A DNA stretch of 64,000 nt, taken from assembly GCF_964194155.1 (NCBI RefSeq), contig NC_135904.1, positions 14,260,001 to 14,324,000 of the forward strand, in the 5' to 3' direction. The translations under genes and the position numbers were made by a program. Shown in pieces: positions 2,771-64,000 of this stretch (within the stretch, counting starts at the first letter, position 1; every line of letters begins with the position of its first letter). A model generated the notes under the pieces. The model was not told the origin of the DNA and did not search any database. It saw nothing but the letters and a program-made list of their open reading frames with translations. This DNA is from Cetorhinus maximus (taxonomy: Eukaryota).

Positions 2771-2832
2771 ATCGAGTTCCCATTCATTATCCCGCAGTCC
2801 CAATGCCGGAGGCCCCAGCTTCCCGTACCCAC

Positions 2833-3215: not shown

Positions 3216-3223
3216 AAAAAACA

Positions 3224-3380
3224 GCCGGTTACCAACTCTCCAGGACTCCCCCACTGGAGTCTCCCGGAATTAAACATTAATTACCCGGACATCGCTGCCA
3301 GAAATCCCCAGTGTGAAACATTATTGGGCAATTAAACAAAACCATGTGTTTTTTTTTTCCATTGTCTTTTGAACAGTTTA
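3224..3380 (+). mobile_element. Left part of a non-autonomous DNA transposon, related to the copy at 8945-9426
   Basis: Aligns by eye to 8945-9065 (ggttaccaac...ctggagtct...ggaatt...attaat...aaatcc...attggg...aacaaaa..atgtg). Confidence 0.5.
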
Positions 3381-5600: not shown

Positions 5601-5604
5601 ATGG

Positions 5605-6028: not shown

Positions 6029-6451
6029 NNNNNNNNNNNNNNNNNNNNNNNNNNNNNNNNNNNNNNNNNNNNNNNNNNNNNNNNNNNNNNNNNNNNNNNN
6101 NNNNNNNNNNNNNNNNNNNNNNNNNNNNNNNNNNNNNNNNNNNNNNNNNNNNNNNNNNNNNNNNNNNNNNNNNNNNNNNNNNNNNNNNNNNNNNNNGGGG
6201 AANNNNNNNNNNNNNNNNNNNNNNNNNNNNNNNNNNNNNNNNNNNNNNNNNNNNNNNNNNNNNNNNNNNNNNNNNNNNNNNNNNNNNNNNNNNNNNNNNN
6301 NNNNNNNNNNNNNNNNNNNNNNNNNNNNNNNNNNNNNNNNNNNNNNNNNNNNNNNNNNNNNNNNNNNNNNNNNNNNNNNNNNNNNNNNNNNNNNNNNNNN
6401 NNNNNNNNNNNNNNNNNNNNNNNNNNNNNNNNNNNNNNNNNNNNNNNNNNN
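6029..6451. other. Assembly gap (N runs 6029-6196 and 6203-6451) covering the BTBD1 proximal promoter
   Basis: N characters in the sequence. Confidence 0.99.
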
Positions 6452-6528: not shown

Positions 6529-22106
<15,578 letters not shown>

Positions 22107-33374: not shown

Positions 33375-34770
33375 TATTCATTCATGGGATGTGGGCTTTG
33401 TTGGCTGGGCCAGCATTTATTGCCCATCCCTAGTTTCCCTTGAGAAGGTGGTGGTGAGCTGCCTTCTTGAACCGCTGCACTCCATGTGGTGTAGGTACAC
33501 CCACAGTGCTGTTAGGGAGGGAGTTCCAGGATTTTGACCCAGCGACAGTGAAGGAACGGCAATATATTTCCAAGTCAGGGTGGTGAGTGACCTGGAGGGG
33601 AACTTCCAGGCGGTGGTGTCCCATCTATCTGCTGCCTTTGTCCTATGTGGCAGTGGTCGTGGGTTTGGAAGGTGCTGTCGAAGGAGCCTTGGTGAATTCC
33701 TGCAGTGAATCTTGTAGATAGTACACACTGATGCTACTGTGTGTTGGTGGTGGAGGGAGTGAATAATTGTTGGTGTGCCAATCAAGCAGGCTGCTTTGTC
33801 CTGAATGGTATCAAGTTCCTTGAATATTGTTTGAGCTGCAATCATCCAGGCAAGTGGAGAGTATTCAATCACACTCCTGACCTGTGCCTTGTAGATGGTG
33901 GACAGGTTTTGGGGAGTCAGGAGGTGAGTTACTCATCACACGATTCCTAGCCTCTGACCTGCTCTTGTTGCCACAGTATATATATGGCTAGTCCAGTTCA
34001 GTTTCTGGTCAATGGTAACCCACAGGATGTTGATAGTGGAAGATTCAGTGATGGTAATGCCATTAAACATAAAGGGGCGATGGTTAGTTTCTATTTTGTT
34101 GGAGATGGTCATTGCTTGACACTTGTGTGGCACGAATGTTACTTGCCACTTGTCAGCCCAAGCCTGGATATTGTCCAGGTCTTGCTGCATTTGGACGTGG
34201 ACTGCTTCAGTATCTGAGGAGTCGCAAATGGTGCTGAACAATGTGCAATCTATCAGCGGACATCCCCACTTCTGACCTTATGATGGACAGAAGGCCATTG
34301 ATGAAGCAGCTGAAGATGGCTGGGCTGAGGACACTGCCCTGAGGAACTCCTGCAGTGATGTCTTGGAGCTGAGATGACTGACCTCCAACAACCACAACCA
34401 TCTTTTGTGCTAGGCATGACTCCAACCAGCGGAGAGTTTCCCCCCCCCCCGATTCCCATTGACTCAAGTTTTGCTAGGGATCCTTGATGCCACATTCGGT
34501 CAAATGCTGCCTTGATGTCAAGGGCAGTCACTCTCACCTCACTTCAGGAGTTCAGCTCTTTTGTCCACGTTTGAACCAAGGCTGTAATGAGGTCAGGAGC
34601 TGAGTGGCCCTGGCAGAACCCAAACTGGATGTCAGTGAGCAGGCAATTGCTAAGCAAGTGCCGCTCGATAGCAATGTTGATGACCCCCTTCCATTACTTT
34701 ACTGATGATCGAGACTAGACTGATGGGGCGGTAATTGGCTGGGTTGGATTTACCATGCCTTTTGTGTGCT
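33375..34770 (-). mobile_element. LINE family B, RT and 3' end
   Basis: RVTALDIKAAFDRMWHQG, AGVPQGSVLSP, QQDLDNIQAWADKWQVTF, with the family 3' end at ~33375-33445. Confidence 0.9.
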
Positions 34771-34849: not shown

Positions 34850-36970
34850 TGAGATAGGATTTTCAAAAGGCCTTTGATAAGATGTCCCATAATAGTCTAG
34901 TGAATAAGGCTAGAGAATAGAGTCAGGGGTCAAGTGGCAGAATTGATTGCTAGCTGGCTTCAAGACAAAGCAGAGAGTGGGAGTAAAGGGTCGTTATTCA
35001 GAAGGTGGGAAGTTGTGTTCCACAAGGGACCGCTGCTGGTTCAAAATATACAGAACAATTTGTACTTTGGAATCAAGAACACAATTTCTAAATTCGCAGA
35101 TGACACCAAGTTGGAGGGGATGGTCAATACTGAAGAGGACCGTAACAAGTTACATAAGGACATTAGTAAACTTGCAGAATGGGCAAATAATTGGCAAATG
35201 AAGTTCTATGTGGTTAAATGTGAGGTAGTACATTATGATAGAATCGTGGGGTAGTCACATTACTAGAAGCTATGAGTCCAGGTTTGGTAGAAGAACAAAG
35301 GAATCTCTAGCACAATCACTAAAAGTTATGTCACAGGTTAGCGAAGCCATAAAAAAACAAACCAAGCACTGGGCTTTATTTCCAGAGGGATAGAATTGAA
35401 AAGTAGCAAAGTTATGCTAAACCTGTACTGAATCTCGGTTAGACCAAACTGATGTATGCAGTTCTGGTCGCCATATTATAAAAAGAATTGGGGAGGATGC
35501 AGAGAAGATTTACAATGGTGATACCAGAAATATGGGGATATACATATTGGGAAAGGATGAACAGGCTAGATACCTTTTGTCTTGAAAAAAAGAAAGCTGA
35601 GGGGTGACCTAATAGAGGCCTTTAATATTATGAGAAGTTTTGATAGAATGTTTCCTCTTGTGGGTGATCAATGTAAGATAGTCACCAAGAAATCCAACAG
35701 GAAATTCAGAAGAAACCTTACCCAATAGTGGTGAGAATTTGGAACTTGCTACCTTATGGAGTGCTTGAAGTGAATAATTTAGATACCTAGCACAAAGGAA
35801 GATGGTTGTGGTTGTTGGAAGTTAGTCATCTCAGCTCCAGGACATCAATGCAGGAGTTCCCCAGGGCAGGGTCCTTTAGCTGCTTCAACAATGATCTTCC
35901 TTCCATCATAAGGTCAGAAATGGGGATGTTCGCTGATGATTGCACAATGTTCAGCACCATTCGCGACTCCTCAGATACTGAAGCTGTCCATGTCCAAATG
36001 CAGCAAGACTTGGACAATATCCAGGCTTGGGCTGACAAGTGGCAAGTAACATTCGTGCCACACATGTGCCAGGTAATGACCATCTCCAACAAGAGAGAAT
36101 GGAACCATCGCCCCTTGATGTTTAATGGGAATACCATCACTGATTCCCCCACTATCAACATTCTGAGGGTTACCGTTGACCAGAAACTGAACTGGATCAG
36201 CCATATAAATACTGTGGCTACAAGAGCAGGTCAGAGACTAGGAATCCTGCAATAAGCAACTCACCTCCTGACTCCCCAAAGCCTGTCCACCATCTACAAG
36301 GCACAAGTCAGCAGTGTGATGGAATACTCCCCAGTTGACTGGATGAGTGCAGTTCCCGCAACACTGAAGAAGCTTGACACCGTCCATGACAAGGCAGCCC
36401 ACATCCACAAACATTCACTCCCTCCACCACTGACGCACAGTAGCAGCAGTGTGTATCATCTACAAGATGCACTGCAGCAATTGACCAAGGCTCCTTCGAC
36501 GGCACCTTACAAACCTACAACAACTACCATCTAGAAGGACAAGGGCGGCAGATAGTTGGGAACACCACCACCTGGAAGTTCCCCTCCAAGTCACTCACCA
36601 TCCTGGCTTGGAAATATATCACCGTTCCTTCACCGTCGCTGGGTCAAAATCCTGGAACTCCCTCCCTAACAGCACTGTGGGTGTACCTGCACCACATGGG
36701 CTGCAGCGGTTCAAGAAGACAGCTCACCACCACCTTCTCAAGGGCAACTAGGGATGGGCAATAAATGCTGGCCCAGCCAGTGAAGCCCACATCCCATGAA
36801 TGATAAAACAAAATTTAAAGAGTAGCTAGACAAGTATGCGAGAGAGAAGGGAATAGAGAGTTACGATGGTAGATTTAGTTGAGGAAAAATGGGAGGAGGT
36901 TTGAGTGGAGCATAAATGCTGACATGGACTGGTTGGGATGAATGGCCTGTTTCTGTGTTGTACATCCTGT
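34850..36970 (+). mobile_element. Old CR1 (34850-35785, resuming ~36813-36970) interrupted by a family B LINE
   Basis: ISKFADDTKLEG..WANNWQMKF.V.KCEVVH; the CR1 tail continues colinearly after the insert. Confidence 0.85.
35786..36812 (+). mobile_element. LINE family B, 5'-truncated, nested in CR1
   Basis: MGMFADDCTMF..QQDLDNIQAWADKWQVTF; 3' end caagggcaactagggatgggcaataaatgctggccc...cccacatcccatgaatgataaaa. Confidence 0.9.
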
Positions 36971-37504
36971 GTATGGAATCTTATGTATGTGTTCAAAGGC
37001 ACGCAGGACTCCACGGGAAAATAACTTCGTCAACAAGCCTTTAACTAGGATTCACAGTCAAGGAGTTAATAATTTCTTCATTCCTTTATGATTTTTTAAA
37101 TCTTGTGAATTCCCAAGTTTTAAATAAACCTTTAAAGATCAGGTTTAGTCAGGAGAGAGTGGTTATTAAAATCTGAACTCCACTCACCAGCAGGTGTCTC
37201 CAATGTATGAGATTGGCTGAGTTTAGTGTGCGGTATAATCTCCCTCATAAACCGACTTAATAAGTGACATTGTAGTGAACAGTGTGACTGTGAGTTCAGG
37301 ACAAATTCCATTGGTGCTTTCTGATTTTCTGTTCAGTGCTCTGTGCTCAGAAACACACTGTTTGATCCCGTGGTCTCAGTCCAGGCAATTAATCCACAGC
37401 ACAGCAATTGGGATCACACCAGTGTCAAGTTTGGAAAATTGTTTGCTGCCACAATTCTATTTCCTGAAACCCATGGTGATGTTTCAAAACCTCACATTCA
37501 TTAA

Positions 37505-40500
37505 ACTGACCAGACCTGACCTGGAGTCACTGGCCTAGAGTCTCACTGACCAACACTGGCCCCGAGTCTCACTGACCAACACTGGCCTAGAGTCTCACTG
37601 ACCAACACTGGCCCCGAGTCTCACTGACCAACACTGGCCCCGAGTCTCACTAACCAACACTGGCCCCGAGTCTCACTGACCAACACTGGCCTAGAGTCTC
37701 ACTGACCAACACTGGCCCCGAGTCTCACTGACCAACACTGGCCCCGAGTCTCACTGACCAACACTGGCCTAGAGTCTCACTGACCAACACTGGCCCCGAG
37801 TCTCACTGACCAACACTGGCCCCGAGTCTCACTGACCAACACTGGCCCCGAGTCTCACTGACCAACACTGGCCCGGAGTCTCTCTGACTGACACTGGCCT
37901 AGAGTCTCACTGACCAACACTGGCCCCGAGTCTCACTGACCAACACTGGCCCCAAGTCTCACTGACCAACACTGGCCCCGAGTCTCACTGACCAACACTG
38001 GCCCCGAGTCTCACTAACCAACACTGGCCCGGAGTCTCTCTGACTGACACTGGCCTAGAGTCTCACTGACCAACACTGGCCTAGAGTCTCACTGACCAAC
38101 ACTGGCCCCAAGTCTCACTGACCAACACTGGCCCCGAGTCTCACTGACCAACACTGGCCCCGAGTCTCACTAACCAACACTGGCCCGGAGTCTCTCTGAC
38201 TGACACTGGCCTAGAGTCTCACTGACCAACACTGGCCCCGAGTCTCACTGACCAACACTGGCCCCGAGTCTCACTAACCAACACTGGCCCGGAGTCTCTC
38301 TGACTGACACTGGCCTAGAGTCTCACTGACCAACACTGGCCCCGAGTCTCACTGACCAACACTGGCCCCGAGTCTCACTGACCAACACTGGCCCGGAGTC
38401 TCACTAACCAACACTGGCCCGGAGTCTCTCTGACTGACACTGGCCCTGAGCCTCTCACTGACTGACACTGGCCCGGAGTCTCTCACTGACTGACACTGGC
38501 CTAGAGTCTCATTGACCGACGCTGGCCCGGAGTCTCTCACTGACCGACACTGGCCCGGAGTCTCTCTGACTGACACTGGCCCGGAGTCTCTCACTGACCG
38601 ACACTGGCCCTGAATCTCTCACTGACCGACACTGGCCTAGAGTCTCACTGACCAACACTGGCCCGGAGTCTCTCACTGACTGACACTGGCCCGGAGTCTC
38701 TCTGACTGACACTGGCCCGGAGTCTCTCACTGACTGACACTGGCCCGGAGTCTCTCTGACTGACACTGGCCCGGAGTCTCTCTGACTGACACTGGCCCGG
38801 AGTCTCTCACTGACCGACACTGGCCCTGAATCTCTCACTGACCGACACTGGCCTAGAGTCTCACTGACCAACACTGGCCCGGAGTCTCTCACTGACTGAC
38901 ACTGGTCTGGAGTCTCTCTGACTGACACTGGCCCGGAGTCTCTCACTGACTGACACTGGCCCGGAGTCTCTCTGACTGACACTGGTCTGGAGTCTCTCTG
39001 ACTGACACTGGCCCGGAGTCTCTCACTGACCGACACTGGCCCGGTGTCTCTCTGACTGACACTGGCCCTGGAGTCTCTCACTGACCGACACTGGCCCTGA
39101 ATCTCTCACTGACCGACACTGGCCTAGAGTCTCACTGACCAACACTGGCCTGGAGTCTCTCACTGACTGACACTGGCCCGGAGTCTCTCTGACTGACACT
39201 GGCCCGGAGTCTCTCTGACTGACACTGGCCCGGAGTCTCTCACTGACTGACACTGGCCCGGAGTCTCTCTGACTGACACTGGCCCGGAGTCTCTCACTGA
39301 CTGACACTGGCCCGGAGTCTCTCACTGACTGACACTGGCCCGGAGTCTCTCTGACTGACACTGGCCCGGAGTCTCTCACTGACTGACACTGGCCCGGAGT
39401 CTCTCTGACTGACACTGGCCCGGAGTCTCTCTGACTGACACTGGCCCGGAGTCTCTCACTGACCGACACTGGCCCTGAATCTCTCACTGACCGACACTGG
39501 CCTAGAGTCTCACTGACCAACACTGGCCCGGAGTCTCTCACTGACTGACACTGGTCTGGAGTCTCTCTGACTGACACTGGCCCGGAGTCTCTCACTGACT
39601 GACACTGGCCCGGAGTCTCTCTGACTGACACTGGTCTGGAGTCTCTCTGACTGACACTGGCCCGGAGTCTCTCACTGACCGACACTGGCCCGGTGTCTCT
39701 CTGACTGACACTGGCCCTGGAGTCTCTCACTGACCGACACTGGCCCTGAATCTCTCACTGACCGACACTGGCCTAGAGTCTCACTGACCAACACTGGCCT
39801 GGAGTCTCTCACTGACTGACACTGGCCCGGAGTCTCTCTGACTGACACTGGCCCGGAGTCTCTCTGACTGACACTGGCCCGGAGTCTCTCACTGACTGAC
39901 ACTGGCCCGGAGTCTCTCTGACTGACACTGGCCCGGAGTCTCTCACTGACTGACACTGGCCCGGAGTCTCTCTGACTGACACTGGCCCGGAGTCTCTCAC
40001 TGACTGACACTGGCCCGGAGTCTCTCTGACTGACACTGGCCCGGAGTCTCTCACTGACTGACACTGGCCCGGAGTCTCTCTGACCGACACTGGCCCTGAA
40101 TCTCTCACTGACCGACACTGGCCTAGAGTCTCACTGACCAACACTGGCCTGGAGTCTCTCACTGACTGACACTGGCCCGGAGTCTCTCTGACTGACACTG
40201 GCCCGGAGTCTCTCACTGACTGACACTGGCCTGGGGTTTCCCTGACTGACATTGGCCTGGGACCTCATACTGACCAATACTGGCCAAGAGCCTCTTACTG
40301 ACCAACACTGGCCTGTGGTCTGACACTGACTGACATTGGCCCACAGTCTCACTGACCAACACTGGTCCGGAGTCGCTCACTGACCAACGCTGGTCTGGAG
40401 TCTCTCCCTGACCAACGCTGGTCCGGAGTCTCTCACTGACCGACAGCGGCTGGGGTCTCACACTGACCAACACTGGCCTGGAGTCCCCCACTGAATGACA

Positions 40501-41717: not shown

Positions 41718-44700
41718 TGACGCTTCAAGTGTCCCGGACAACTACCTCTGCAGGAAGTGTACCCAATTGCAGCTCCTCACAGACCACGTGGATCGGTTGG
41801 AGCAGCAGTTGGAGGCACTTAGGAGCATTCAGGTTGCGGAAAGCGTCATTGACGGGAGTTTTGGAGACATGGTCACACCCAAGGTACAGACAGATAGATG
41901 GGTGACCGCTAGAAGGGGCAGGCAGTCAGTGCAGAAATCCCCTGTGACTGTCCCCCTCTCTAACAGGTATACCGTTTTGGATACTGTTGGGGGGGATGGC
42001 CTATCAGGGGAAAATAACAGCAGTAGCCAGAGCAATGGCACCATGGCTGTCTCTGTTGTTCAGCAGGGAGGGGTCAAAGCACAGAAGAGCAATTGTCATA
42101 GGGGACTCTATAGTCAGGGGCTCAGATAGGTGCTTCTGTGGTTGTGAAAGAGACACCAGGATGGTATGTTGCCTCCCTGGTGCCATGGTCCAGGATGTCT
42201 CTGATCAGGTATGGGACATTCTGAAGGGGGAGGGAGAACAGCCAGAGGTCGTGGTACACATTGGTACTAACGATATAGGCAGGAAGAGTGACGAGGTCCT
42301 GCAGCGGGAGTTCAGGGAGTTAGGCAGAAAGTTATAAAACAGGACCTCTAGGGTTGTAATCTCAGGATTACTCCTTGTGCCACGTGCCAGTGAGGCTAGA
42401 AATAGGAAGATAGTGCAGCTGAACACGTGGCTGAACAGATGGTGTAGGAGGGAGGGTTTCTGATATCTGGATCATTGGGATCTCTTCCGGGGCAGGTGGG
42501 ACCTGTACAAGAAGGACGGGTTGCATCTAAACTGGAGGGGCACCAATATCCTGGCTGCGAGGTTTGCTAGTGTCACTCGGGAGGGTTTAAACTGGTATGG
42601 CAGGGGGGTGGGAACCAGAGCAATAGGTCAGCAGGTGAAATAAATGACTGGGAACCAGTGAATATGGCCAGTAGGACTAAGAGGAAGAGCTGGCAGGGAG
42701 AAATTACTGAACACAGTGGGACTGGGGGTCTGAAATGCATTTGTTTCAATGCGAGAAGTATAACAGGCAAGGCAGATGAGCTTAGAGCTTGGATTAGTAC
42801 TTGGGACTATGATGTTATTGCTATTACAGAGACTTGGTTGAAGGATGGACAGGATTGGCAGATAAATTTTCCATAATTTAGATGTTTCAGGCAGGATAGA
42901 GAGGGATGTAGAAGAGGTGGGGGAGTTGCACTGCTGGTTAAGGGGAATATCACAGCTGTACGACAAGAGGACACCTTGGTGGGCTCATGCAGTGAGGCAT
43001 TATGGGTAGAGTTCCGGAATAGGAAGGGTGCAGTCACAATGTTGGGGGTTTACTATAGGCCTCCCAATTGCCGGCGAGAGATTGAGGAGCAGTTATGTAG
43101 GCAGATTTTGGAAAGATGTAAAAGCAATAGGGTTGATGTGGTGGGTGATTTTAACTTTCCCTATATTGACTGGGAATCACTTAGTGCTAGGGGTTTGGAT
43201 GGTGCAGAATTTGTAAGGTGCATCCAGGAAGACTTCCTGAGACAATATGTAGATAGTCCAACTAGGGAAGGGGCAATACTGGACCTGGTATTAGGGAATG
43301 AACCCGACCAGTTGGCCGAGGTTTCAGTAGGGGAGCATTTCGGGAAAAGTGACCATAATTCAGTAAGTTTCAAGGTACTGGTGGATAAGGATAACAGGAG
43401 TCCTCGGGTTAAGGTGCTTAATTGGGGTAAGGCTAATTATAACAATATTAGGCAGGAACTGAGGAATCTAGACTGGAGACGGATGTTTGAGGGCAAATCA
43501 ACAACTGACACGTGGGGGGCTTTCAAACGTCAGTTGATAAGAATTCAGGACTGGCATGTTCCTGCTAGGATGAAGGATAAGTATGGCAAGCTTCAGGAAC
43601 CTTGGATAACGAAGGATATTGTGAAATTAGTCAAAAAGAAAAGGGAAGCATTCGTAAGGGCTAGAAGGCTGGGAACAGATGAAGCCCGTGGAGAATATAA
43701 AGAAAGTAGGAAGAAACTTAAGCAAGGAGTCAGGAGGGCTAAAAGGGGTCATGAAAAGTCACTGGCAACCAGGATTAAGGAAAATCCCAAGGCCTTTTAT
43801 ACATATGTAAAAAGCAAGAGGGTAGCCAGGGAAAGGGTGGGCCCACTCAGGGACAGAGGTGGGAATCTGTGTGTGGAGCCAGAAGAAATGGGAGAGATAC
43901 TAAATGAATACTTCTCATCAGTATTCACCAAAGAGAAGGACTTAGTGGTCGATTTGTCTAGGGAAGAGTGTATAGATAGCCTGGATCATGTTGAGATCAA
44001 AAAAGAGGTGTTAGGCGTCTTGAAGAATATTAAGATGGATAAGTCCCCAGGGCCAGATGGGATCTACCCCAGAGTACTAAGGGAGGCAAGGGAGGAGATT
44101 GCTGGGGCCTTGACAGAAATCTTTGTATCCTCACTGGCTACGGGTGAGGTCCCAGAGGACTGGAGAATGGCCAATGTTGTTCCATTGTTTAAGAAAGGTA
44201 GCAGGGATAATCCAGGAAATTACAGGCCGGTGAGCCTTACGTCGATGGTAGGGAAATTATTGGAGATGATTCTTCGTGACAAGATTTACTACCATTTGGA
44301 AGCAAATGGGCGTATTAGTGAGAGGCAGCATGGTTTTGTGAAGGAGAGGTCATGTCTCACTAACTTGATCGAGTTTTTCGAGGAAGTGACAAAGATGATC
44401 GATGATGGAAGGGCAGTGGATGTTTTCTACATGGTTTTCAGTAAGGCCTTTGACAAGGACCCTCATGGCAGACTGGTACAGAAGGTAAAGTCGCACAGGA
44501 TCAGAGGTGAGCTGGCAAGATGGTTACAGAATTGGCTTGGTCATAGAAGACAGAGGTAGCAGTGGAAGGGTGCTTTTCTGAATGGAGAGCTGTGACTAGT
44601 GGAGTTCCGCAGGGATCAGTGCTGGGACCTTTGCTGTTTGTAGTATACATAAATGATTTGGAGGAAAATGTAACTGGGCTAATTAGTAAGTTTGCAGACG

Positions 44701-45614
44701 ACACTAAGGTTGGAGGAGTTGCAGATAGTGAAGAGGATTGTCAAAGGATACAACGGGATATAGATCGGTTGGAGACTTGGGCAGAGAAATGGCAGATAGA
44801 GTTTAATCCGGACAAATGCGAGGTAATGCATTTTGGAAGGTCTAATACAGGCAGGAATTATACAGTAAATGGCAGAACCCTTAAGTGCATCGACGGGCAG
44901 AGGAATCTGGGTGTACAGGTCCACAGGTCACTAAAAGTGACAACGCAGGTGGATAAGGTAGTCAGGAAGGCATATGGCATGCTTGCCTTCATTGGCACGG
45001 GTATTGAGTATAAAAGCTGGGAAGTCATGCTGCAGCTGTATAGAACCTTGGTTAGGCCACACTTGGAATATTGCGTGCAATTCTGGTCGTCACATTACCA
45101 GTAGGATATGGAGGCGTTGGAGAGGGTGCAGAGGAGGTTTACCAGGATGCTGCCTGGTCTGGAGGTTATTAGCTATGAGGAGAGGTTGGAGAAACTCGGA
45201 TTGTTCTCACTAGAGCGACGGAGATTGAGGGGCGACTTGATAGAAGTTTACAAAATTATGAGTGGCATGGACAGAGTAGATAGTCAGAAGCTTTTTCCCA
45301 GGGTGGAAGAGTCAATTACTAGGGGACATAGATTTAAGGTGAGAGGAGAAAACTACAGAGGAGATGTGCAGGGCAATCTTTTTACACAGAGGGTAGTGAG
45401 TGTCTGGAATTCACTGCCAGAGGAGGTGGTGGAAGCAGGTACGATAGTGGTGTTTAAGAGGCAGCTTGACAAATACATGAAGAGGATGGGAATAGAGGGA
45501 TACGGACCTCATAAGTGCAAAATGTTTTAGTTGTCGGGCAATATGATGGGCGCAGGCTTGGAGGGCCGAAGGGCCTGTTCCTGTGCTGTACTTCTCTTTG
45601 TTCTTTGTTCTTTG
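41718..45614 (+). mobile_element. Near full-length young but inactive CR1 LINE (ORF1 zinc-finger/leucine-zipper plus SGNH esterase; ORF2 APE-RT)
   Basis: ORF1: YLCRKCTQLQLL, AIVIGDSIVRG, VVVHIGTNDIG, DGLHLN. ORF2 ~42660-45530 has a stop at 42874-42876, a frameshift near 44556 and a stop at 45102-45104; FADD is intact. (TTCTTTG)n tail; TGAAAG direct repeat at both ends. Confidence 0.95.
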
Positions 45615-46105
45615 AAAGGCAGAACAGGCTGGAGGTACTGACTAGCCTCCTCCTGTTCCTATGTAATTTGTAGCTGATTATACATCAGATGTAAAGTTTC
45701 CAATCATTATATAGTCAGTTAAGGGAAAGAAAGCACTCAACAGATCTAATGCTGAGAAATGGCTGCTAATATCAAGCAATATTGATCCTTCCTTCCCACT
45801 ATCAACCTACAATTGGATTTCTTGCTTCTCAGGGAGCTTTACAGCTTCTGAACACAAAATCATGACAAATATCTGCTGTTTCCACTCTGTGAGCTTTAAC
45901 TGGTTGAGAACTGTTTCCTGTCGTGTTAGTTAAGCCTTTTGTGTGAAGACTCAGCCAAGTGCCAAAGATGAGAGGTGCAGCAAAATGGGGGTACTGGGGT
46001 TTTAATGGCTTATTTTGCCCTTCTTAGAGCCACTCTTCGATTTTCACAAACCCCTCACTTAACCATATGTTTCCTGTTCTAGTTCCATGGGATCTTTTAC
46101 ATCCT

Positions 46106-46380: not shown

Positions 46381-46660
46381 TGGTCAGGATCTGGAATGCA
46401 CTGCCTGAGAGTGTGGTAGAGGCAGGGTCACTCGAATGGTTAGGATCTGAAATGCACTGCCTGAGAGTGTGGTAGAGGCAGGGTCACTCGAATGGTTAGG
46501 ATCTGGAATGCACTGCCCGAGAGTGTGGTGGAGACAGGGTCAATCGAATGGTTAGGATCTGGAATGCACTGCCTGAGAGTGTGGTAGAGGCAGGGTCACT
46601 CGAATGGTTAGGATCTGGAATGCACTGCCTGAGAGTGTGGGGGAGACAGGGTCAATTGTG
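46381..46660 (+). repeat. Five tandem 56-bp copies of a CR1 3' segment, inside a CR1 tail (46365-46810)
   Basis: Unit TGGTTAGGATCTGGAATGCACTGCCTGAGAGTGTGGTAGAGGCAGGGTCACTCGAA starts at 46381, 46437, 46493, 46549 and 46605. Confidence 0.95.
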
Positions 46661-47077: not shown

Positions 47078-47390
47078 GAAAGCAAAATACTGCGGACGCT
47101 GGAAATCTGAAATCAAAACAGAGAATGCTGGAAAAATTTAGCAGGTCTGGCAACATCTGTGGAGAAAGAAAGAGAGTTAACGTTTCGAGTCCTCTCTCCT
47201 CTGGTTATTCCTTATATTTTCCTCAAACCTTTTTGCATCACAGTCTCCTAAAAATCTACTATTTCAGGTCATTCACCTTTCATCAGATCTTCCGATGAAA
47301 GATCATTGACCTGAAATGTTAACTCTGTTTCTCTCTCCACAGATGCTGCTTGACCTTCTGAGTGTTTCTAGGTTTTATTTGTTCTTATTT
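47078..47390. mobile_element. Inverted pair of Penelope terminal-repeat fragments
   Basis: 47078-47192 (aaagcaaaatactgcgga.gctggaaatc...gttaacgtttcgagtc) and the opposite-orientation piece at 47290-47390. Confidence 0.78.
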
Positions 47391-47817: not shown

Positions 47818-48767
47818 CCTGGAAAGATGGAATTGTCAATAAAGCAGGTGAAGGAAGATTGGACAGTGAATCACCTGAATATAGCCAGAGAGAACAATAC
47901 AGTTACACAACACACTGGAGGATCAAAGGATCATTGGGTGACCGAGTGACACGAAGCACATTTAATACTCTGCCGAGCTCCCATCCTCGGCCTTGTTGTT
48001 GAATGGAAGCCTTTCAATAATCTCCAAATGGCTGATTCAGCCTCTTGATTACAGGAAATGTGTGGGGAAACTAGGCTGAAATCACGTGACAGGAAAAAGA
48101 GAAATACCTTGGGGGGGGGGGAAAAAAATGAAGAAAATGATTTGGGTTTGAAATAATTAAACCAAAGTCTCCAATAATTCATTGTGGAGTTGGGAGCTGT
48201 TTTGTAACATTCTTATGACAGGTGTGATACTGGAGTCACTCCACAAGGCTGGGGTTCCCACCTACACTCAACATGTGGTAAATATGTGTTCTCACTGCTG
48301 TAATAGATTCCAGAGCAGTTTGCAGTCATCTGTTATCCAGCTTGATTTAAATGGCAGCAACTCTCGTTTTGTTAGAAAGTTGTGGGTTGAAGCCCCACTT
48401 CAGCTGGCATCTCAGTGCGGTTACAGGGAGACCGAGACAGCTATACTGTTAGAAGTGATGTCTTTCAGGGGAAACTTTAAATCAGATCCTGGCTGTATCG
48501 TCAGGTGATTATACAAAGCTAATACCGTCTCATTGCTTTTCTATTCCATGCCTCTCATGTTCGGTCTGTTTATTTGTGACATTATCTACTTATGTTGCCA
48601 CTGTTAAATTTGCTAATGACCGATCCAACTCCCTTACTCCATTTAAACTCTTGCCACTGAAGATAAATTCCTTCTAAAATTACATTATTTGACATCTTTC
48701 TGTATTGAACTGCATCTACCCCTCAGTCTATCTCCAACCTGCACCCCCATTATGCCCTCACCCTGTG

Positions 48768-48948
48768 CCCTCCCCCCTGCCCCCCAACCCCACCCCCCAC
48801 TCCCCCCCCAAACCCCCAACCCCCCAACCCCACCCCCCCAAACCCCAACCCCACCCCCCCCAAACCCCCAACCCCCCCCAAACCCCCAAACCCACCCCCC
48901 ACTCCCCCCCAAACCCCCAAACCCACCCCCCACTCCCCCCCAAACCCT
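48768..48948. repeat. C-rich low-complexity repeat (CCCCAA/CCCCAC variants)
   Basis: Directly visible. Confidence 0.9.
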
Positions 48949-49609: not shown

Positions 49610-51512
49610 TGTTGTCATCAGTGCTATCAAGCGGGACTTGCTTAGCAACAACCTGCTCACTGATGCCCAGTTTGGGTTCCGCCAGGGCCACTCGGCTCCT
49701 GACCTCATTACAGCCTTGGTTCAAACATGGACAAAAGAGCTGAGCTCCCGGGGTGAGGTGAGAGTGACTGCCCTTAACATCAAGGCAGCATTTGATCAAG
49801 TAACCCCAGCAAAACTGGAAAGCATGGGAATCGGGGAAAACTCTCCGCTGTTTGGAGTCATACCTAGCACAAAGGAAGCTAGTTGTGGTTGTTGGAAGCC
49901 AAACATCTCAGCCCCAGGAAATCACTGCAGGAGTTCCTCAGGGTAGTGACCTAGGCCCAACCATCAATGACCTTTCTTCCATCATGAGGTCAGAAGTGGG
50001 GATGATCACTGATGATTGTACAATGTTCAGCAGCAGTGGCAATTTCTCAGGTACTGAAGCAGTCCGTGTCCAAATGCAGCAAGATTTGGACAACAATTGG
50101 GCTTGGGCTGATAAGTGACAAGTGACATTTGCGCCACACAAGTGCCTGGCAATGACCATCTCCAACAAGAGAAAATCTAACCATCTCCCCTTGACATTAA
50201 ACCATAATCTCATTACTGAATCCCTGACTATCAACATTCTGGGGGTTACCTTGACCAGAAACTGAACTGGACTAGCCATATAAATACTGTAGCCAAAAAA
50301 GTAGGTCAGAGAGGGGGAATTCTGCGGTGAATAGCACCTCGACTCCCCAAAGCCTGTCCACCATCTACAAGGCACAAGTCAGGATTGTGATGGAATACTC
50401 CCCACTTGCCAACAACACTCAAAATGTTGAACACCATCCGGGAAGAAGCAGCCCACTTGATTAGCACCCCATCCAGCACCTTAACCATTCATGCCCTCCA
50501 CTACTGACACACAGTGGCAACAGTGTGTACCATCTACAAGGTGCACTGCAGCAACTAACCATAAGAACTAGGAGCAGGAGTAGGCAATTCAGCCTGCCCT
50601 GCCATTCATGACTGATCTCATTTCGGCCTCAACTCCAATTTCCCGTCCTCTCCCCATAACCTTTCAACTCGTTACTAATTAAAGATCTGACTATCTCCTC
50701 CTTAAATTTATTCAGTGTCCCAGCATCCATTGCACTCTGAGGTAGTGAATTCCACAGATTCACGACCCTTTGAGAAAAGTAGTTCCTCCTCATCTCTGAT
50801 TTAAAAACCTCCACCCCTTAGCCTAAAACTATGGCCTCTCATTCTAGAATGCCCCACAAGGGGAAACATCCGCTCCACGTCTACTTTGTCTATCCCCTTT
50901 AGCATCTTATGTACCCCAATTAGATCTCCTCTCATCCTTCTAAACTCTAGCGAGTATAGGCCTAAACTGCTCAATCTCTTCTCATAAGACAAGCCTCGCA
51001 TCTCTGGAATCAATCTAGTGAACCTCCTCTGAACCACCTCCAATGCAACTACATCCTTCCTCAAGTAAAGGGACAAAAACTGTGCACAGTACTCCAGGTG
51101 CGGTCTCACCAATGCCTTGAACAGTTGCAACAACACTTCCCTATTTTTATACTCTATTCCTTTAGCAATAAATGCCAACATTCCATTTGCCAAGCTTCAT
51201 TCAACAGATCCTTCCAAACCCGTGACCTCTACCACCTTGAAGGTCAAGGGCAGCAGATACATGGGGAACACCACCTGCAAGTTCCCCTCCAAGCCACTCA
51301 CCATCCTGACTTGGAAATATATCTCCGTTCCTTCACTGTCGCTGAGTCAAAATCCTGGAACTCCCTTCCTAACAGTACTGTGGGTGTACCTACACCACAG
51401 GGACTGCCGGAGTTCATTAAGGTAGCTCACCACCACCTTCTCAAGAGCAACTGAGGATGGGCAACAAATGTTGGTCTACCAGCGACACACATTCCATGAA
51501 GGAAAAAAAAAA
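49610..51512 (+). mobile_element. LINE family B RT and 3' end, interrupted by an inverted CR1
   Basis: LLTDAQFGFRQGHSAPDL..RVTALNIKAAFD, AGVPQGS; resumes at ~51190 and ends in the family tail plus poly(A) at ~51503-51512. Confidence 0.88.
50560..51190 (-). mobile_element. CR1 3' fragment nested in LINE family B
   Basis: ANGMLAFIAKGIEYK..LVRPHLEYCAQF..RRMRGDLI..RRNYFSQRVVNLWNSLP. Confidence 0.9.
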
Positions 51513-54991: not shown

Positions 54992-56240
54992 AAAGCAAAA
55001 TACTGCGGATGCTGGAAATCCAAAACAAAAATAAAAATACCTGTGAAAAACTCAGCAGGTCTGACAGCATCTGCGGAGAGGAACACAGTTAACGTTTCGC
55101 GTCCGAATGACTCTTCATCAGAACAAAGGAAAAATAGAAAAGAGGTAAAATATAAGCTGGTTTAGGGGGGGGGGGGGGGGGGGAGACAGGTAGAGCTGGA
55201 TAGAGGGCCAGTGATAGGTGGAGATTGCTAAAAGATGTCACAGACAAAAGGACAAAGAGGTGTTGACGGTGGTGATATTAGCTAAGAAATATGCTAATGG
55301 AGACATTAAGGGTAGAAAGCAGGACGAGCAAGGGACAGATAGCCCTAGTGGGGGTGGGGTGGAGGGAATCGAAATAGGCTAAAAGGTAGAGATAAAACAA
55401 TGGATGGAAATACATTTAAAAATAATGGAAATATGTGGGAAAAGAAAAATATATATAAATTATTGGAAAAAGGAGGGGATCGGAAAGGGGGTGGGGATGG
55501 AGGACAGAGTTCACGATCTAAAGTTGTTGAACTCAACATTCAGTCTGGAAGGCTGTAAAGTGCCTAGTCGGAAGATGAGGTGCTGTTCCTCCAGTTTGTG
55601 TTGAGCTTCACTGGAACATTGCAGCAGGCCAAGGACGGACATGTGGGCATGAGAGCAGGGTGGTGTGTTGAAATGGCAAGCGACAGGGAGGTCTGGGTCA
55701 TACTTGCGGACAGACCGAAGGTGTTCCTCAAAGCGGTCACCCAGTCTGCGTTTGGTCTCTCCAATGTAGAGGAAACCACATTGGGAGCAGCGAATGCAGT
55801 AGACTAAATTGAGGGAAGTGCAAGTGAAATGCTGCTTCACTTGAAAGGAGTGTTTGGGCCCTTGGACGGTGAGGAGGAGGGGGAAGTAAAGGGGCAGGTA
55901 TTGCACCTTCTGCAGTTGCATGGGAAGGTGCTGTGGGAGGGGGTTGAGGTGTAGGGGGTGATGGAGGAGTGGACCAGGGTGTCCCGGAGTGAACGATCCC
56001 TGTGAAATGCCGCCAGGGGTGGTGGCATCCTGCTGGAGTTGGCGGAAATGGCGGAGGATGATCCTTTGAATGCGGAGGCTGGTGGGGTGATAAGTGAGGA
56101 CAAGGGGGACCCTATCATGGATCTGGGAGGGAGAGGAAGGTGTGAGGGCGGATGCGCGGGAGATGGACCGGACACGGTTGAGGGCCCTGTCAACCACCGT
56201 GGGTGGAAAACCTCGGTTAAGGAAGAAGGAAGACATATGC
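54992..56240 (-). mobile_element. Penelope-like element 3' part (RT thumb/linker, GIY-YIG, terminal repeat), joined to a CR1 tail at 56241-56550
   Basis: MSSFFLNRGFPPTVVDRAL..RVPLVLTYHP..FTCTSLNLVYCIRCSQCGFLYIGETKRRLGDRFEEHL..KLEEQHLIFRLGTLQP. Confidence 0.92.
55086..55126 (-). ncRNA. Minimal type I hammerhead ribozyme motif in a Penelope terminal repeat (slightly decayed)
   Basis: Minus strand reads GTT-CTGATGA-A-GAGTC-ATTCG-GACGC-GAA-ACGT-T-AAC: CUGANGA and GAAA core, stem II, palindromic ACGU helix III, short stem I. Confidence 0.6.
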
Positions 56241-57689
56241 GGGTCTTTGAAAGAGCCATCCAATTAATCTCTCTCCTGCTCTTCCCCAATAGCCCTGCAA
56301 ATTTCCCCTTCAAGTATTTATCCAATTTCTATTTGAAAGTTACAGTTGAATGTGTTTCCTGATTGCAACAATTTGCTGCACAAAAAAACCTTCTCTTTAA
56401 TTCCCCCCCTGATTCTGTTACCGATGATCTGAGATCGGTGTCCTCTGTTACCAAGTAAATGTTTCCCTATTTACGCAATCAAAACCTTCTGGTTTTGAAT
56501 ACCTTTGTCAAGTCTCCCCTTAATATTGTCTGTTTTATGGAGAATTTTGTGCTGATTGAAATAATCGTTTTGGGTTTGGAGTTAACACTGCCATCAGTGA
56601 CAGGTGATGACTATCTGTAATCGACAAAGTCCAGTCCTCTCCCCTCAATGGTCAGTGGCACCAGTAACTTCAAGCACCCCCTCCCACCCCACATCCAGAG
56701 GAGTCACCATTGACCAGACGCTGAACTGGACCAATCGCATTAACACCATGGTTATTAGAACAGGTCAGAGGCTGGGAATTCTGCAGCAACTGGCTCACCT
56801 CCTGACTCCCCAAATTCCGCCTCACCCCCTAAAAGGCTCAGGTCAGGAGTGCGCTGGACATTCAATCTCCTCTGGACAGCTAGTTACAACAACACTGAAA
56901 AAGTTCAACAACATCCAGGGCTCAGCACTCCCTCTTGAGCCAGTTTTACATTTCCCACATTAGCCTCTGAGACCATCAGCTTTTTAACACCTTAGGATCA
57001 GTTTGTCTTGTGGACCTGAGCTGACTAGGAATTGGCCTGAGCCTGCCCAGCCCTCTCCACAAAGGCAGGACTTACATTACATTGCCTGTTTCAAGCATTG
57101 TGTGGCTTTACTTCAGATAAGCAGCATCTGCAGAATTCTTTTTCCTGTATTTTTTCTTACATTTCACATCTTTAACGCTGATTGTAATTGCTTCATCCAA
57201 TCCCACCTCCTTCTCAATAGACCTGCACTCCAATCTCTCTAATAGCTCTTGACTGAATTCATCCTATCCTATTTTTATCTCATCCTTACTTGACTTAGAT
57301 TCCTTCTCAACCATTATCCTAGCTGTCTTCGCAGAGATACCTGGTTCGGTGACTAATCCCCTCTGACAAGATGTTTATAGTCTGACCTCTCACCCAGTCT
57401 GGAGTTTTGTACAATAAAGATCCTGTCCTGCTCGTTTTCAACCCTGCTGTTTTGCTGTAAAGGATTTGTGATGCTGTAATTTGTTGATTCCTTCCTCTAT
57501 CTCAGATGGATTATCTGTATTGAGATGTTAATTCCAGCTCTCAGCCTGCAGTTGAATGCAAAGCACCACCTTTGACAAAGTGCATGGTCTGTTTCATGTT
57601 CGTTATCTCCGAAAGGAACAAAGGACTTGTATATTTACTGTAGTCAATTTAGTTCAGCTGCCAGCAATCTCACCTTTAAATCAGTTCAA

Positions 57690-58590: not shown

Positions 58591-59739
58591 TAAAACATAG
58601 ATTGGTGGTACTTCAACAATAGTTACTGCTTTATCTCAACTCTTTCCAGCTGGTACTGTACTGACCTCGTGTTTTCCTGAAATCAGTTTTGATATCAACA
58701 TCCAACTGATTCTAAACTTTTACAGCTTTGTATATTAAATAGAATCAGCTTTTAGATGCAGACTCAGGACCTGTTTATTTGTATTTTGTTCATTTTTGGA
58801 GGATGCAGAAGTATAAAAATACAGAAACAATCAACAGGGAATATTCAGTGTAAACTAGTCTTCCAGTGTCTCTTGTCAGGTCTAGGAGGGTCAGTACATC
58901 AGTTGGTGTGGACTGAGGCACTCAACCAGCGCAGGCTGAGTCTCAGCCCCGGATGGTGCTTGGAGCCACCAGGCTCAATCATGGATGTAACTGGGATCAG
59001 AGCCCACAGTGGGGGGAAAGCAGCCAAGCTTTCTACACCTCACGGCCCTGGCTGGAGATGCAGATGGCTGGTTTCAGCCGAGTTTGTGTCTGGCTGTGAT
59101 TTCACCTGGTCAAATTATCTGAACAGCATTCTTAAAAAGTATCAGTGTCACAGCATAATGGGATAGTCTGGTAACCCTGGCAACATCAAAGGAACAGTGA
59201 GGTGAATTAACAAAAGTCCACAGTTACTAACAGAATTCCAGTGATGGTAAGTGACTGCTGCCCTTTGAACTCATCACAGTCTACTGAAGATTCCAAACTG
59301 ACATTTCAATGGATTACAGCTATATTGCCAGATGACAAAGGCAAAGAAAATGAAAAGCACACTCCTACCTTAAAAATAACTTTTAAAAAAACCTTAAAAA
59401 ACTTTCAGCCCCTGTTACTGAGAGAGATTCACAATAACAGCCTTCATTCACAAACTGCTTTGAGAAAAATGCAAAGACTCAGTAAGACCAACTAGAAATC
59501 CTCCTGGATTCAAACATCAGCTTCAAAGCAACAAGCCAGGCCAACAGAGGAAGAGATCCTGAACTATAAAAATGACAAGTCTCGGATGTGATTACCCATT
59601 AGGCAACGAGTGTGTTGCTGAACATGTACATAAGCCATCTGCTAACAGTCACATGGGAGGCAGTTCCCTTGTTATCCTGAGCGCGTTTCATTGACATCTT
59701 TCAACTTTCTCAACAGATCAATTTCAGTGAATCATTACT

Positions 59740-60398
59740 CAGTAACTGACCCACTCCGTCAATCACAGCCCCTACAGTGTCCCCACTGACCCACTCCTAT
59801 CAGTCACAGCCCCTACATTGTACCCACTGACCCACTCCGTCAATCACAGCCCCTACAGTGTACTCACTGACCCATTCTGTCAGTCACAGCCCCTACAGTG
59901 TACTCACTGACCCATTCCGTCAGTCACAGACCCTACAGTGTACTCACTGACCCACGCCATCAGTCACAACCCCTAGTGTACCCACTGACCCACTCCGTCA
60001 ATCATAGCCCCTACAGTGTACTCACTGACCCACTCCGTCAATCACAGCTCCTACAGTGTACTCACTGACCCACTCCAACAGTCACAACCCCTACAGTGTA
60101 CCCACTAACCCACTCCATCAGTCACAGTCCCTACAGTGTACTCACTGACCCATTCTGTCAGTCACAACCCCTACAGTGTACCCACTGACGCACTCCGTCA
60201 ATCACAGCCCCTACAGTGTACTCACTGACCCACTCCATCAGTCACAGTCCCTACAGTGTACTCACTGACCCATTCTGTCAGTCACAACCCATACAGTGTA
60301 CCCACTGACCCATTCCTTCAGTCACAGCCCCTACAGTCTACTCACTGACCCATTCCGTCAGTCACAGCCCCTACAGTCTACTCACTGACCCATTCCCT
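59740..60398. repeat. 40-bp minisatellite, ~16 copies (CTCACTGACCCACTCCGTCAGTCACAGCCCCTACAGTGTA)
   Basis: Period 40 is visible (TAC[C/T]CACTGA at 59821, 59861, 59901, 59941). Confidence 0.96.
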
Positions 60399-61697
60399 AC
60401 ACTAACAGCTAACAAACACATTTTGCTAAAATCAACTGTACTCCAAACAACTGAACATCATAACTGTCTATAAAACACAGAATCTGTCTTTAAATAAATT
60501 AGACACTCATCATCTAAAAGTAAAGAAATTGTAATTGCAGGGAGGGAGCTAGAAGCTATGGTTTGAAGTGGAAACAGATGTCACATTATATCAGGGTGAT
60601 GATGGATTAAAGACATGGCTTCACACACTATCATCCCTTCACTCCACGGAACCTTCAAATAATGTGCAGTGCATCCTGGTACAGATTGTTCTCATTGATA
60701 TCTTTTGTAATTCATAACAAAATATCCAGAAATTTCCAGAGTTCCAAAAGGTTCAAACATTAGTGTCAAACACCAGAGCAAACTGAGATCGATAAACTTT
60801 CAACATAGTAACAGAGGCCAAAGTTGAATTGAAGAGGGGTTCAGAGCATCAGAGATTTTTAAATAACCAGGAATCTTCCTCTCAGTTATCTCCTTTTTTT
60901 GTACTTCCATAAATATAAGGATCAGGAACAATTAATTCTTGCTCAGATTTAATTCTCTATGCCTGATTCTCCTCACACTTTGTCATATAACCAGCTCACA
61001 AGCTGTCTGAAGTACACAGGGAATGGACAGTCTGTGGAGTAACTAGACTCAGCGAGAAAGAAACTGAATGAATGCAGACTGACACAGGAAGGATGCAGCA
61101 TCCCTGTTAAATTGCAGAATCCTCCCTGAGGAGATCGCTACAGATTTTATTCAGAATCAGGTTCAGCTGAGCCAGTACCTCTGCACTGGCAGGTGAAACA
61201 GACCAAGAGGAAATGGACGTTCAAGTTAATTCTTAGAGACATTTGATTCTCTTTGCCTCAATTTGTCCTGAGAACATTCTCCAGACAAGCAGCCTGCTGG
61301 CCCAGTCTCCACCAGTGCTTCCCTCAGACTGGACATGAGCAGAAACCTCTCACTATAATCTGGGGGAGCAAGAGGGGGACTTGGCCTGTGATTAGGGTCT
61401 CCCTGACAATGCAACACTTTTCCATGACAACATATTCCCCCAAATGTACAATGATTAGTTCATCAAGAGCCACTATCCACAAGTTCCCAGACAGTTCTAG
61501 GTGACAGCAACCCACTGCCTGCCAAATGCTCAAACTATAACCCCCCTCCCCACCAACAAACTACCAAACTAACTAATGGCAAGAAAACTGATGACAAGGA
61601 GCCCTCTTTAAAATTAGAATCCATTTCCTTGTCTGACGTTAGTTACTGTGGTGCTTTACGCAGCTGAATGATTGAGTGATTGGATTGTGGCTCAGTA

Positions 61698-61875
61698 TCA
61701 GTAGCGATGGTGGTTGGATTGCCAGTGCGAATTGGAGCCTTGGCTGTAAGATTCATATGGCCCCTGGTGATGAACTGGAGAATGATTGTAGCCACGGCCT
61801 CTCCCGTGCCACTGGCGGTTATAGGACCAATTGCGACCGTCATCTCGTCCTTTGTACGGTCGATAGTCTTGCGAC
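61698..61875 (-). CDS. RAMAC: RAMAC (FAM103A1/RAM, RNMT-activating cap methyltransferase subunit), last coding exon
   Basis: Minus strand tttgttttag|G TCG CAA GAC: SQDYRPYKGRDDGRNWSYNRQWHGRGRGYNHSPVHHQGPYESYSQGSNSHWQSNHHRY*. This resembles the human RAM C-terminal half as recalled (LQDNRQFRGRD..W...NQWHGR), and the exon is convergent with C15orf40 as in human. Confidence 0.85.
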
Positions 61876-62487
61876 CTAAAACAAAAAGGTAAAAAAAAAA
61901 AATTCTCAAACTGATGCTGAATTTGGCTTTACTCACTTTGGAACGATTTATTTGATGTTGTGACTGTAAAGGAAGAGATTTCGACATGCTGCAGTTGTTG
62001 TAGTCAGTTTTCCAAACATTACACGTTACAATCATTTCTCCCAAGGTGATTGCTCACAGTTAACATTTCATGAACTATCTCCTTACTCATGACCAGATTC
62101 AGCAACACCTCTCTTTTAGGTACACAAACTGATTGAGGATGGAGTGTCCCGCCACGTCAGGAATTCCGTTTCATTCACTCCCTCCTTGTCTCGAACATTT
62201 GTGGCTGATAAAAATTTCCAAGAAGAATAATTATGGTTACTTACTCAACTCTCTGATCCACTTAGAGGTTCCCTCTTCCATTTACCTCCAATGATTTAGG
62301 GGGTAGCAGTACATCCCCACTAATGAAATAACCTCGTTAGGGGAGAAGGTTAGGGTTACGTTCCAAAAAGGAAATTGGAGGAGCACTTGAGGGAAATAAA
62401 CTTGCAGGACTAAGTGACTAGAACAGGGGGAAACGGGACCAACTGGATTGATCTACAAAGGGCTGGCACGGGCTTAACAAGCCCAGA

Positions 62488-64000
62488 TGGGGGAGTGGTG
62501 ATGTCACTAGACCAGGAATCCAGAGGCCCAGGTGAATGCTCTGGGGTCACGGGTTCAATTCCCACCATGGCAGCTGGTGGAATTTAATTCAATTAATAAA
62601 ATCTGGAATTGAAAGCTAGTCTAATGGTGACCATGAAACCATTGTCGATTGACATAAATGTCCCTTACCTGGTCTAGCCTACATGCGACTCCAGACCCAC
62701 TGCAATGTGGTTGACTCTTAACTGCCCCTCTGAAATGGCCAAGTAAGCCACTCAGTTGTATCAAACCACTAAAAAGCCTACAAAAGGGAATGAAACTGGA
62801 TGGACCTGGCATCGACCTAGGCACGGGAAAGAACAACAGTAAACTCAGCCCTGTCGACCCTGCAAAGTCCTCCTTACTAACATCTGGGGGCTAGTGCCGA
62901 AATTGGGAGAGCTGTCTCACAGACTAGTCAAGAAACAGCCTGACATAGTCATCCTCACAGATAATGACCCAGACACCACCATCACCATCCCTGGATATGT
63001 TCTATCCCACTGGCAGGACAGATCCAGCAGAGGTGGCGGCACAGTGGTATACAGTTACCCTGGGAGTCCTCAACATTTATACCAGAACCCATGAAGTCTC
63101 ATGGCATCAGGTCAAAAATGGGCAAGGAAATCTCCTGCTGATTAGCACGTACTGCCCTCCCTCAGCTGATGAATCAGTGCTCCCCCATGTTGAACACCAC
63201 TTGGAGGAAGCACTGAGGGTGACAAGGACGCAGAATGTACTCTGGGTGGGGGAGTTTAATGTCCATCACCAAGAGTGGCGCGGTAGCACCACTACTGACT
63301 GAGTTGGCCGAGTCCTAAAGGACATAGCTCCTAGACTGGGTCTGCGGCAGGTGGTGAGGGAACCAAGAGGGAAAGTCATACTTGACCTCATCCTCACCAA
63401 CCCGCCTGCCGCAGATGCATCTGCCCATGATGGTATCGGTAGGAGTGACCTCCGCACAGTCATTGTGGAGATGAAGTTCTCCTTGAAGACACCCTCCATC
63501 ATGTTGTGTGTCACTATCACCGTGCTAAATGGGATAGATTTCGAACGGATCCAACAACTCGAGACTGAGCATCCATGAGGCGCTGTGGGCCATCAGCAGC
63601 AGCAGGGTTATACTCAACCACATTCTGTAACCGGCAAATCCCCCACCCTACCATTACTATCAAGCCAGGGGATCAATCCTGGTTCAATGAAGAGTGCAGG
63701 AGGGCATGCCAGCAGCAGCACCAGGCATACCTAAAAATGAGGTGTCAACCTGGTGAAGCTACAACAGAGGACTATTTGCACGCCAAACAGCATAAGCAGC
63801 AAGTGATGGACAGAGCTAAGCAATTCCACAACCAATGGATCAGATTTAAGCCCTGTAGTCATGCCAAATTCAGTCGTGAATGGTGGTGGACAATTAAACA
63901 ACTCACTGGAAGAGGCGGCTCCACAAATATCCCCGTCCTCAATGATGGAGGAGCCCAGCACATCAGTGCAAAAGATAAGGCTGAAGCATTTGCTAAGGTC
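62488..64000 (+). mobile_element. 5' end of a LINE: tRNA-like head, SINE-like body, then a decayed APE endonuclease ORF running off the window
   Basis: A-box-like TGGGGGAGTGG (62488-62498); B-box GGTTCAATTCC (62552-62562). ORF from ~62861: CKVLLTNIWGLVPKLGEL..PDIVILT..IPGY..DRSSRGGG..TYCPPS..WVGEFNVHHQEW..ILDLILTN..SD. Confidence 0.85.

Follow-up and report, generated by a model that had tools for sequence, protein, structure and literature searches.

The 3' end of the window (the whole stretch of 64,000 nucleotides analyzed here, Cetorhinus maximus contig NC_135904.1, positions 14,260,001 to 14,324,000) was found to carry a dead LINE copy of the elasmobranch Zenon family, whose full-length form is 3.3 kb with a single ORF. 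The family and its no-ORF1 state are known, the latter being an ordinary Zenon trait outside the novelty, and the family-wide tRNA head and loss of T-runs are a variant on a known kind of LINE. On balance, the sequence evidence leans towards an autonomous coding LINE that moved to RNA polymerase III (Pol III), with a 3.3-kb uncapped and terminator-purged RNA that has no in-frame AUG, was kept across sharks and rays and spawned tRNA-SINEs. The divide between LINEs and SINEs is drawn along Pol II versus Pol III and coding versus non-coding. If our reading is true, the family would be a natural protein-coding Pol III unit and a LINE family of tens of thousands of copies with a SINE-type promoter, SINE birth from a LINE in one step would be a new route, and translation of a long uncapped RNA without an in-frame AUG would be testable in the same element.

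The decayed copy at this locus comprises the 5' half of a Zenon LINE (62486..64000, + strand, as for all features of this copy given below), corresponding to nt 9-1601 of the family majority sequence. When read past the window, it matched family nt 9-3220 at 87% and ended before the tail, at about contig position 14325553; the 3' tail is absent. The copy has frameshifts and stops, and about 45 bases of its body are missing. An earlier note on this DNA had described an A-box-like motif, a B box, a T arm, a long extra stem, a body, a 34-codon ORF and an endonuclease, and all were located at the positions claimed for them. The tRNA-derived head (62486..62572), which includes a 20-base extra arm, most closely resembles tRNA-Thr(AGT), as judged by anticodon position and T arm. 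It contains an A box that is decayed in this copy (62488..62498; family form TGGCGTAGTGG at nt 11-21), an anticodon-arm equivalent (62507..62523), an extra stem-loop that separates the anticodon arm and T arm (62527..62545; the segment nt 31-120 folds with z -4.05) and the T arm containing the B box (62551..62563). The head is followed by a body or 5' UTR common to both SINE families described below (62573..62757), with the SINE breakpoints mapping to about 62734 (family nt 292) and 62757 (nt 315). An upstream ORF of 34 codons with an ATG start (62790..62894; ATG conserved, stop not) overlaps out of frame with the start of the APE endonuclease part of the single ORF (62867..63485). The latter is frameshift-broken in this copy, matches Pfam PF14529 within 62949-63299 (E 3e-7) and has its start motif, LTNIW, at 62873-62887 in a frame that differs from that of the 34-codon ORF. 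The ORF linker (residues 260-435 of the family protein) occupies 63482..64000, and the RT lies beyond the window end. Neither ARAGORN (0 genes) nor Rfam (no tRNA match) called this copy as a tRNA, because it is too decayed. On the opposite strand at 61660-61875 (-), a 216-base open Thr-rich stretch with a pyrimidine tract plus AG on one side and GT on the other looks like a host exon; if so, the LINE would sit antisense in an intron.

Genome search with positions 62480-63100 recovered copies that share the head-body-ORF order, and 17 of the copies found were used to derive the family majority sequence. This sequence is 3,283 bases and is composed of the head, a UTR of about 300 bases, one 975-codon stop-to-stop frame with APE and RT, a 54-base 3' UTR and an A-rich tail, with no second long frame. 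The claim that no ORF1 intervenes between head and endonuclease was borne out, as full-length copies have neither an ORF1 nor an alternative 5' UTR. The body-to-ORF junction was detected in 3,210 exact genomic matches (0 for a reversed control pattern) and, hence, is common to thousands of copies and not unique to this locus. A 20-base pattern at the ORF end had 45,425 genomic matches. Comparison of the two counts, a rough ratio as the patterns differ in length, indicates that most copies are 5'-truncated, as is usual for LINEs. Six more 5'-truncated Zenon pieces, at 73-93% to the family majority, were found in the window at 33376-34767 (-), 35783-36803, 49615-50561, 1992-2762, 51190-51504 and 56691-56938.

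To define the boundaries of the element, we used a sample of 60 copies (places 31-90 among the 100 junction matches listed). The 5' start was within nt 1-20 in 46 of these copies (at nt 1 in 23) and within nt 45 in 51, and the upstream flanks were mutually unrelated, with a sharp 5' boundary at the head. Thus, the head is the element's own 5' end. The earlier note had also suggested testing whether target site duplications (TSDs) enclose the element from head through tail. No TSDs were found: none of the 28 two-ended copies had at least 8 matching bases and 2 had 7, for which chance is 5.7%. The unity of the element from head to tail therefore rests on boundaries and copy number. TSDs are commonly short or missing in the CR1 group. 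Among 37 copies, the 3' end was an A run in 25, a T run with A's in 10 and other sequence in 2, and an AATAAA-like sequence was located ahead of the A tail in many copies. The run of four or more T's before the A's in 10 of the 37 tails (L165, L166, L175, L195 and others) is either a decayed A tail or a terminator at the element end; with a T4 run in only these 10, no fixed terminal terminator was found.

The family was identified as Zenon by comparison to Stuart et al. 2026 (PMC13343379), passages of which report shark and ray Zenon elements with a poly-A tail and none with ORF1. Family motifs matched 7 elasmobranch Zenon rows in a table of that paper and no other rows. Comparison by eye of the first 400 bases in its supplement table revealed the same head, A box and B box at the opening of the Zenon-1 consensuses of white shark, whale shark, catshark, dogfish and stingray, and the same head, body and junction in CarCar, RhiTyp, ScyCan and HypSab Zenon-1 and SquAca Zenon-1 to -3. 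The five published elasmobranch Zenon-1 lengths (3,244-3,314) bracket the 3,283 bases of our family majority. By contrast, hagfish and coelacanth Zenon were found, over the same first 400 bases and also by eye, to have an unrelated T-run-rich 5' start without the head. The main text of PMC13343379 had 0 matches for tRNA, polymerase III, promoter or start codon, and its passages on Zenon do not describe the head, the T-run loss, the missing ATG or the derived SINEs. No tRNA-headed, terminator-free Zenon was described in the literature searched, the scope of which stopped short of subscription journals, Repbase, Dfam, the Zenodo files of PMC13343379 and preprint supplements.

Relatives of the family protein were collected by HMMER search (3,001 hits); a word-indexed homolog search with the N-terminal piece gave no match, and no relatives were found in the viral contigs searched. 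The RT tree covered unnamed relatives and one CR1. The element was also detected in a run labelled coral metagenome. As this run contains the shark CR1 control (see below) too, at up to 95-99%, its copies seem to come from shark nucleic acid in the library rather than from coral, and it provides no evidence for horizontal transfer or expression. RNA-labelled contigs span the whole element; as assembled contigs, they give no strand, start or polymerase.

The tRNA-derived nature of the head was apparent from the family majority, in which ARAGORN detected a tRNA-Thr(agt) with a cloverleaf fold (score 108). Single copies passed less often (4 of 60 at default, 17 of 60 at a 90% threshold), and in a well-kept copy tRNA was the best Rfam match at 19.5 bits (E 0.27), under the gathering score. 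The A box (nt 11-21) and B box (about nt 74-85) of the family have tRNA-like spacing. When aligned to a genomic tRNA-Thr(AGT) gene, the head was identical at 49 of 72 aligned bases, plus the 20-base insert. Alignment scores were 50.5 for Thr(AGT), 53 for Thr(TGT) and 49 for Cys, compared to 27 +/- 4.5 for shuffles, several tRNAs thus scoring alike as candidate donors. Examination of the published consensuses by eye revealed that in dogfish the extra arm resembles a duplicated anticodon arm, that its stem has paired changes between dogfish and white shark, and that stingray is without the arm (PMC13343379, supplement table). A short-armed head was also detected in the genome (388 exact matches), with the 30 that were read (L306-L335) being mostly LINE or SINE copies; in these short-armed copies the extra arm is lost between its flanking direct repeats. 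Upstream regions of distant relatives gave 0 of 71 matches to a strict B-box pattern and 7 of 71 relaxed ARAGORN calls, many of the contigs being short, and this is weak evidence that the head is absent from these relatives.

In mammals, Pol III terminators include TTTT, TCTTT, TATTT and degenerate T5 (passages of PMC8466645 and PMC3141230). The sense strand of the 3,283-base family majority was found to have no T4 run, compared to 14 of A4, 9 of G4 and 11 of C4. When the ORF was analyzed by codon shuffling, which keeps protein and codon usage fixed, the T4 count alone was not significant (0 versus 2.1-2.2 expected, p 0.08), and the T-loss signal therefore rests on T3 runs and on five-base windows with at least four T's. 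The ORF has 4 T3 runs versus 13.1 after shuffling, with 0 of 1,000 shuffles this low, and 1 such T-rich window versus 11.6 expected (p 0.001), while windows of A, C and G are at 0.94-1.18 of expectation. The avoidance is located at codon borders: none of the 29 codons ahead of a TT codon has T as its last base (background 0.21), and T is likewise never the last base in the 28 xT codons that stand before a T (background 0.18). Phenylalanine accounts for 1.8% of the family protein versus 2.3-4.3% in ten compared proteins. The majority of the older-head subfamily (14 copies) has one T4 run.

Two controls were included. The first was a young CR1 LINE of the same genome, which is present in the window at about 42050-45620 (+) (L201), has an esterase-like ORF1 and a 986-codon ORF2 and occurs in copies that are 95-96% alike; this control (19 copies) displayed 11 T4 runs and a ratio of 0.92, with no loss. 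The second was a set of 44 related ORFs with an open frame of at least 800 codons, obtained from 80 metagenome loci. All 44 had at least three T4 runs, with ratios of 0.81-1.48 for T3 and at least 0.74 for T-rich windows (median 1.0). These related ORFs are distant (24-41% protein identity, some near-duplicates) and are single contigs, whereas the family statistics were computed on the majority of copies 7-11% diverged. The earlier note had suggested checking the consensus for depletion of sense-strand T4+ terminators; a loss of sense-strand T-runs is present, and is specific compared to both CR1 and the 44 related ORFs. We infer that this pattern may reflect selection for Pol III read-through.

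Based on a head with A and B boxes and a sense strand almost free of T-runs, the family is likely transcribed end to end by Pol III from these boxes. In the mechanism that we propose, an ancestral Zenon in the shark-and-ray stem would have acquired the head through template switching, with a tRNA or an older SINE as the donor. TFIIIC would bind the A and B boxes of the head, T4 and 4-of-5-T terminators would have been selected out such that Pol III could read through the ORF, and Pol III would stop at the first T-run inside or past the tail. The full-length LINE RNA would be uncapped.

We regard it as rather unlikely that Pol II instead transcribes the LINE, from the body or by host read-through, with the head as a passenger or 5'-end processing signal. 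The characterized LINE promoters are those of Pol II according to passages of PMC2881922; one review in this literature calls LINE promoters 'polymerase II (or pol III)' with no detail (PMC2881922 / PMC3894237, in part). Under this alternative the T-runs would have been lost otherwise, for example by avoidance of splice or cleavage signals or of A-tail pairing; by contrast, the loss is absent from the CR1 control and the 44 related ORFs, and the depleted words are those that stop Pol III. Pol II would supply a cap and ordinary scanning, yet a ribosome that scans from a cap would encounter a number of upstream ATGs, none of which is in frame. While the AATAAA-like sequence before the A tail in many copies is as expected of Pol II, the element starts in SINE fashion, 6 bases ahead of the tRNA-like part and 10 ahead of the A box. 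The head retains a cloverleaf fold, beyond what A and B boxes require; however, no Rfam ribozyme match of the HDV-like type was detected in the window copy or in the well-kept head of L166.

Translation is the least certain part of our explanation. In the majority protein, the first in-frame Met is residue 291, beyond the entire endonuclease, and the endonuclease motifs that we take to be catalytic are intact. Given this position of the first in-frame ATG and the intact active site, translation would start without a normal in-frame AUG. By contrast, an in-frame Met was found upstream of the endonuclease in all five of the closest relatives with DNA. The upstream ATG of the family is located behind an A-rich stretch and was kept in 64 of 72 copies as well as in the Zenon-1 consensuses of five species (PMC13343379, supplement table). 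It was out of frame in 66 of 73 copies and in frame in 7. From this ATG to the endonuclease start, no net indel was detected in 45 of 73 copies and the out-of-frame register was kept in 56 of 73, which led us to reject an alignment artefact that conceals an in-frame ATG. The stop of the upstream ORF is not conserved (TAG in 36 copies, TTG in 25) and differs by subfamily, which weakens termination-reinitiation at a fixed stop. An in-frame TTG start at family nt 314-316 was also rejected, as TAA follows immediately in a 20-copy subfamily. Behind the upstream ATG, we detected no canonical slippery heptamer and no stable fold (z -0.1 to -0.9), and no 2A-type NPGP motif was seen by eye upstream of the endonuclease. 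Our preferred guess, a tentative one, is that initiation may occur at the conserved out-of-frame AUG behind the A-rich leader and be followed by a shift into the ORF frame; non-AUG initiation in the ORF frame is a similarly tentative candidate. Unconventional initiation of ORF2 is described for L1 and SART1, with non-AUG and IRES-type starts raised as possible (passages of PMC2881922 and PMC3894237).

The two SINE families were examined for their relation to the LINE. Among 30 loci with the body end, 21 continued into the LINE's last 68-70 bases, 6 into the LINE and 1 into unrelated sequence, and 2 were other internal deletions. Both SINE families consist of the LINE 5' part joined to the LINE tail at different breakpoints, with no private sequence; the junction at nt 315 had 2,917 exact copies and that at nt 292 had 3,943, and sporadic extra breakpoints were detected in L059, L078 and L313. 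As judged by four diagnostic head sites, the nt-292 SINE has the younger LINE head type (6 of 6), and 12 more loci revealed no old-type base at the first diagnostic site in the 9 that were readable. The heads of the nt-315 SINE (n = 13) were old in 6, mixed in 5 and young in 2. Both derivatives have the tRNA head with A and B boxes of SINE2 elements and are short and non-coding; the element at the locus itself has the head and is 3.3 kb and coding. As there are two breakpoints and the SINEs have no private sequence, while their heads match the LINE subfamilies, repeated internal deletion is the simplest reading, and the two SINE families are best read as products of such deletions of the LINE. 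Internal deletion of the LINE RNA would keep promoter and tail, and could thereby generate ready-made SINEs.

Of the two routes of origin raised by the earlier note, the SINE as an internal-deletion derivative is the one that better fits the present SINEs, while capture of a SINE by the LINE fits less. We consider it quite improbable that the SINE came first, with the LINE capturing its 5' part up to the tail or inserting specifically into the SINE such that the head marks a target or donor and not a LINE-borne promoter. The nt-315 SINE does have a mostly older head that is further from the family majority (76-87% in most heads), and an older SINE remains plausible as the first head donor. However, the SINEs hold nothing of their own between body and tail, their two abundant breakpoints are accompanied by sporadic ones, their heads track LINE subfamilies, no second SINE half follows the LINE tail, and lepidopteran Zenon is known to yield internal-deletion elements (PMC6740152, in part). 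A chance SINE insertion next to a 5'-truncated LINE at this locus alone, to which the lack of a tail or TSD linking head and ORF in the locus copy might point, is refuted to near certainty by the 3,210 exact junction copies, the identical junction in the consensuses of five species and the boundaries of the sampled copies.

The closest known systems share only some of these traits. According to passages of PMC1925062 and PMC6740152, lepidopteran Zenon/BmCR1B likewise has a single APE and RT ORF, a length of about 3.3-3.5 kb, a 5' UTR of about 300 bases, a very short 3' UTR and poly-A. Lepidopteran Zenon likewise gives derivatives in which a 5' part is joined to a 3' part by deletion, such as Persaeus, which is stated in the relevant passages to be without tRNA homology and without a Pol III promoter (PMC6740152). 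By contrast, as the shark LINE carries a tRNA head, its derivatives are SINEs with this head. In RTE-1_DAn and relatives, a tRNA-like sequence shared with many SINE2 elements was noted within a LINE (Kojima 2018, PMC5786205); these differ in being of the RTE clade and from insects, with the place and role of the tRNA-like sequence not given and no terminator analysis. In the same paper, ORF-less bipartite elements are traced to RTE, Ingi, Vingi and R2 only, and its order of events, in which deletion comes first and the tRNA head is added after, is the reverse of that which we propose for shark Zenon. Bov-tA, CoeSINE4 and SINE2_Gav (PMC5786205) have the same build of tRNA head, LINE 5' part and LINE 3' part; however, their partner LINEs are without the tRNA head, whereas the coding element of shark Zenon has it. 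The B2, Dip and Ves SINEs provide a precedent for AATAAA and an A tail on Pol III transcripts; unlike shark Zenon, in which no fixed terminal terminator was found, these are short and non-coding with a terminator at the end (passages of PMC8466645).

Other repeats were also observed in the window. Tandem arrays with units of 26/28, 40, 22, 56 and 8-14 bases are located at 37372-39500, 59737-60454, 5548-6049, 46381-46660 and 48758-48947. At 28244-28443, a short repeat forms a perfectly abutting inverted pair with arms of 99 bases that are 96% complementary, and this repeat recurs at 10812-10877, 47079-47192 and 55023-55123.
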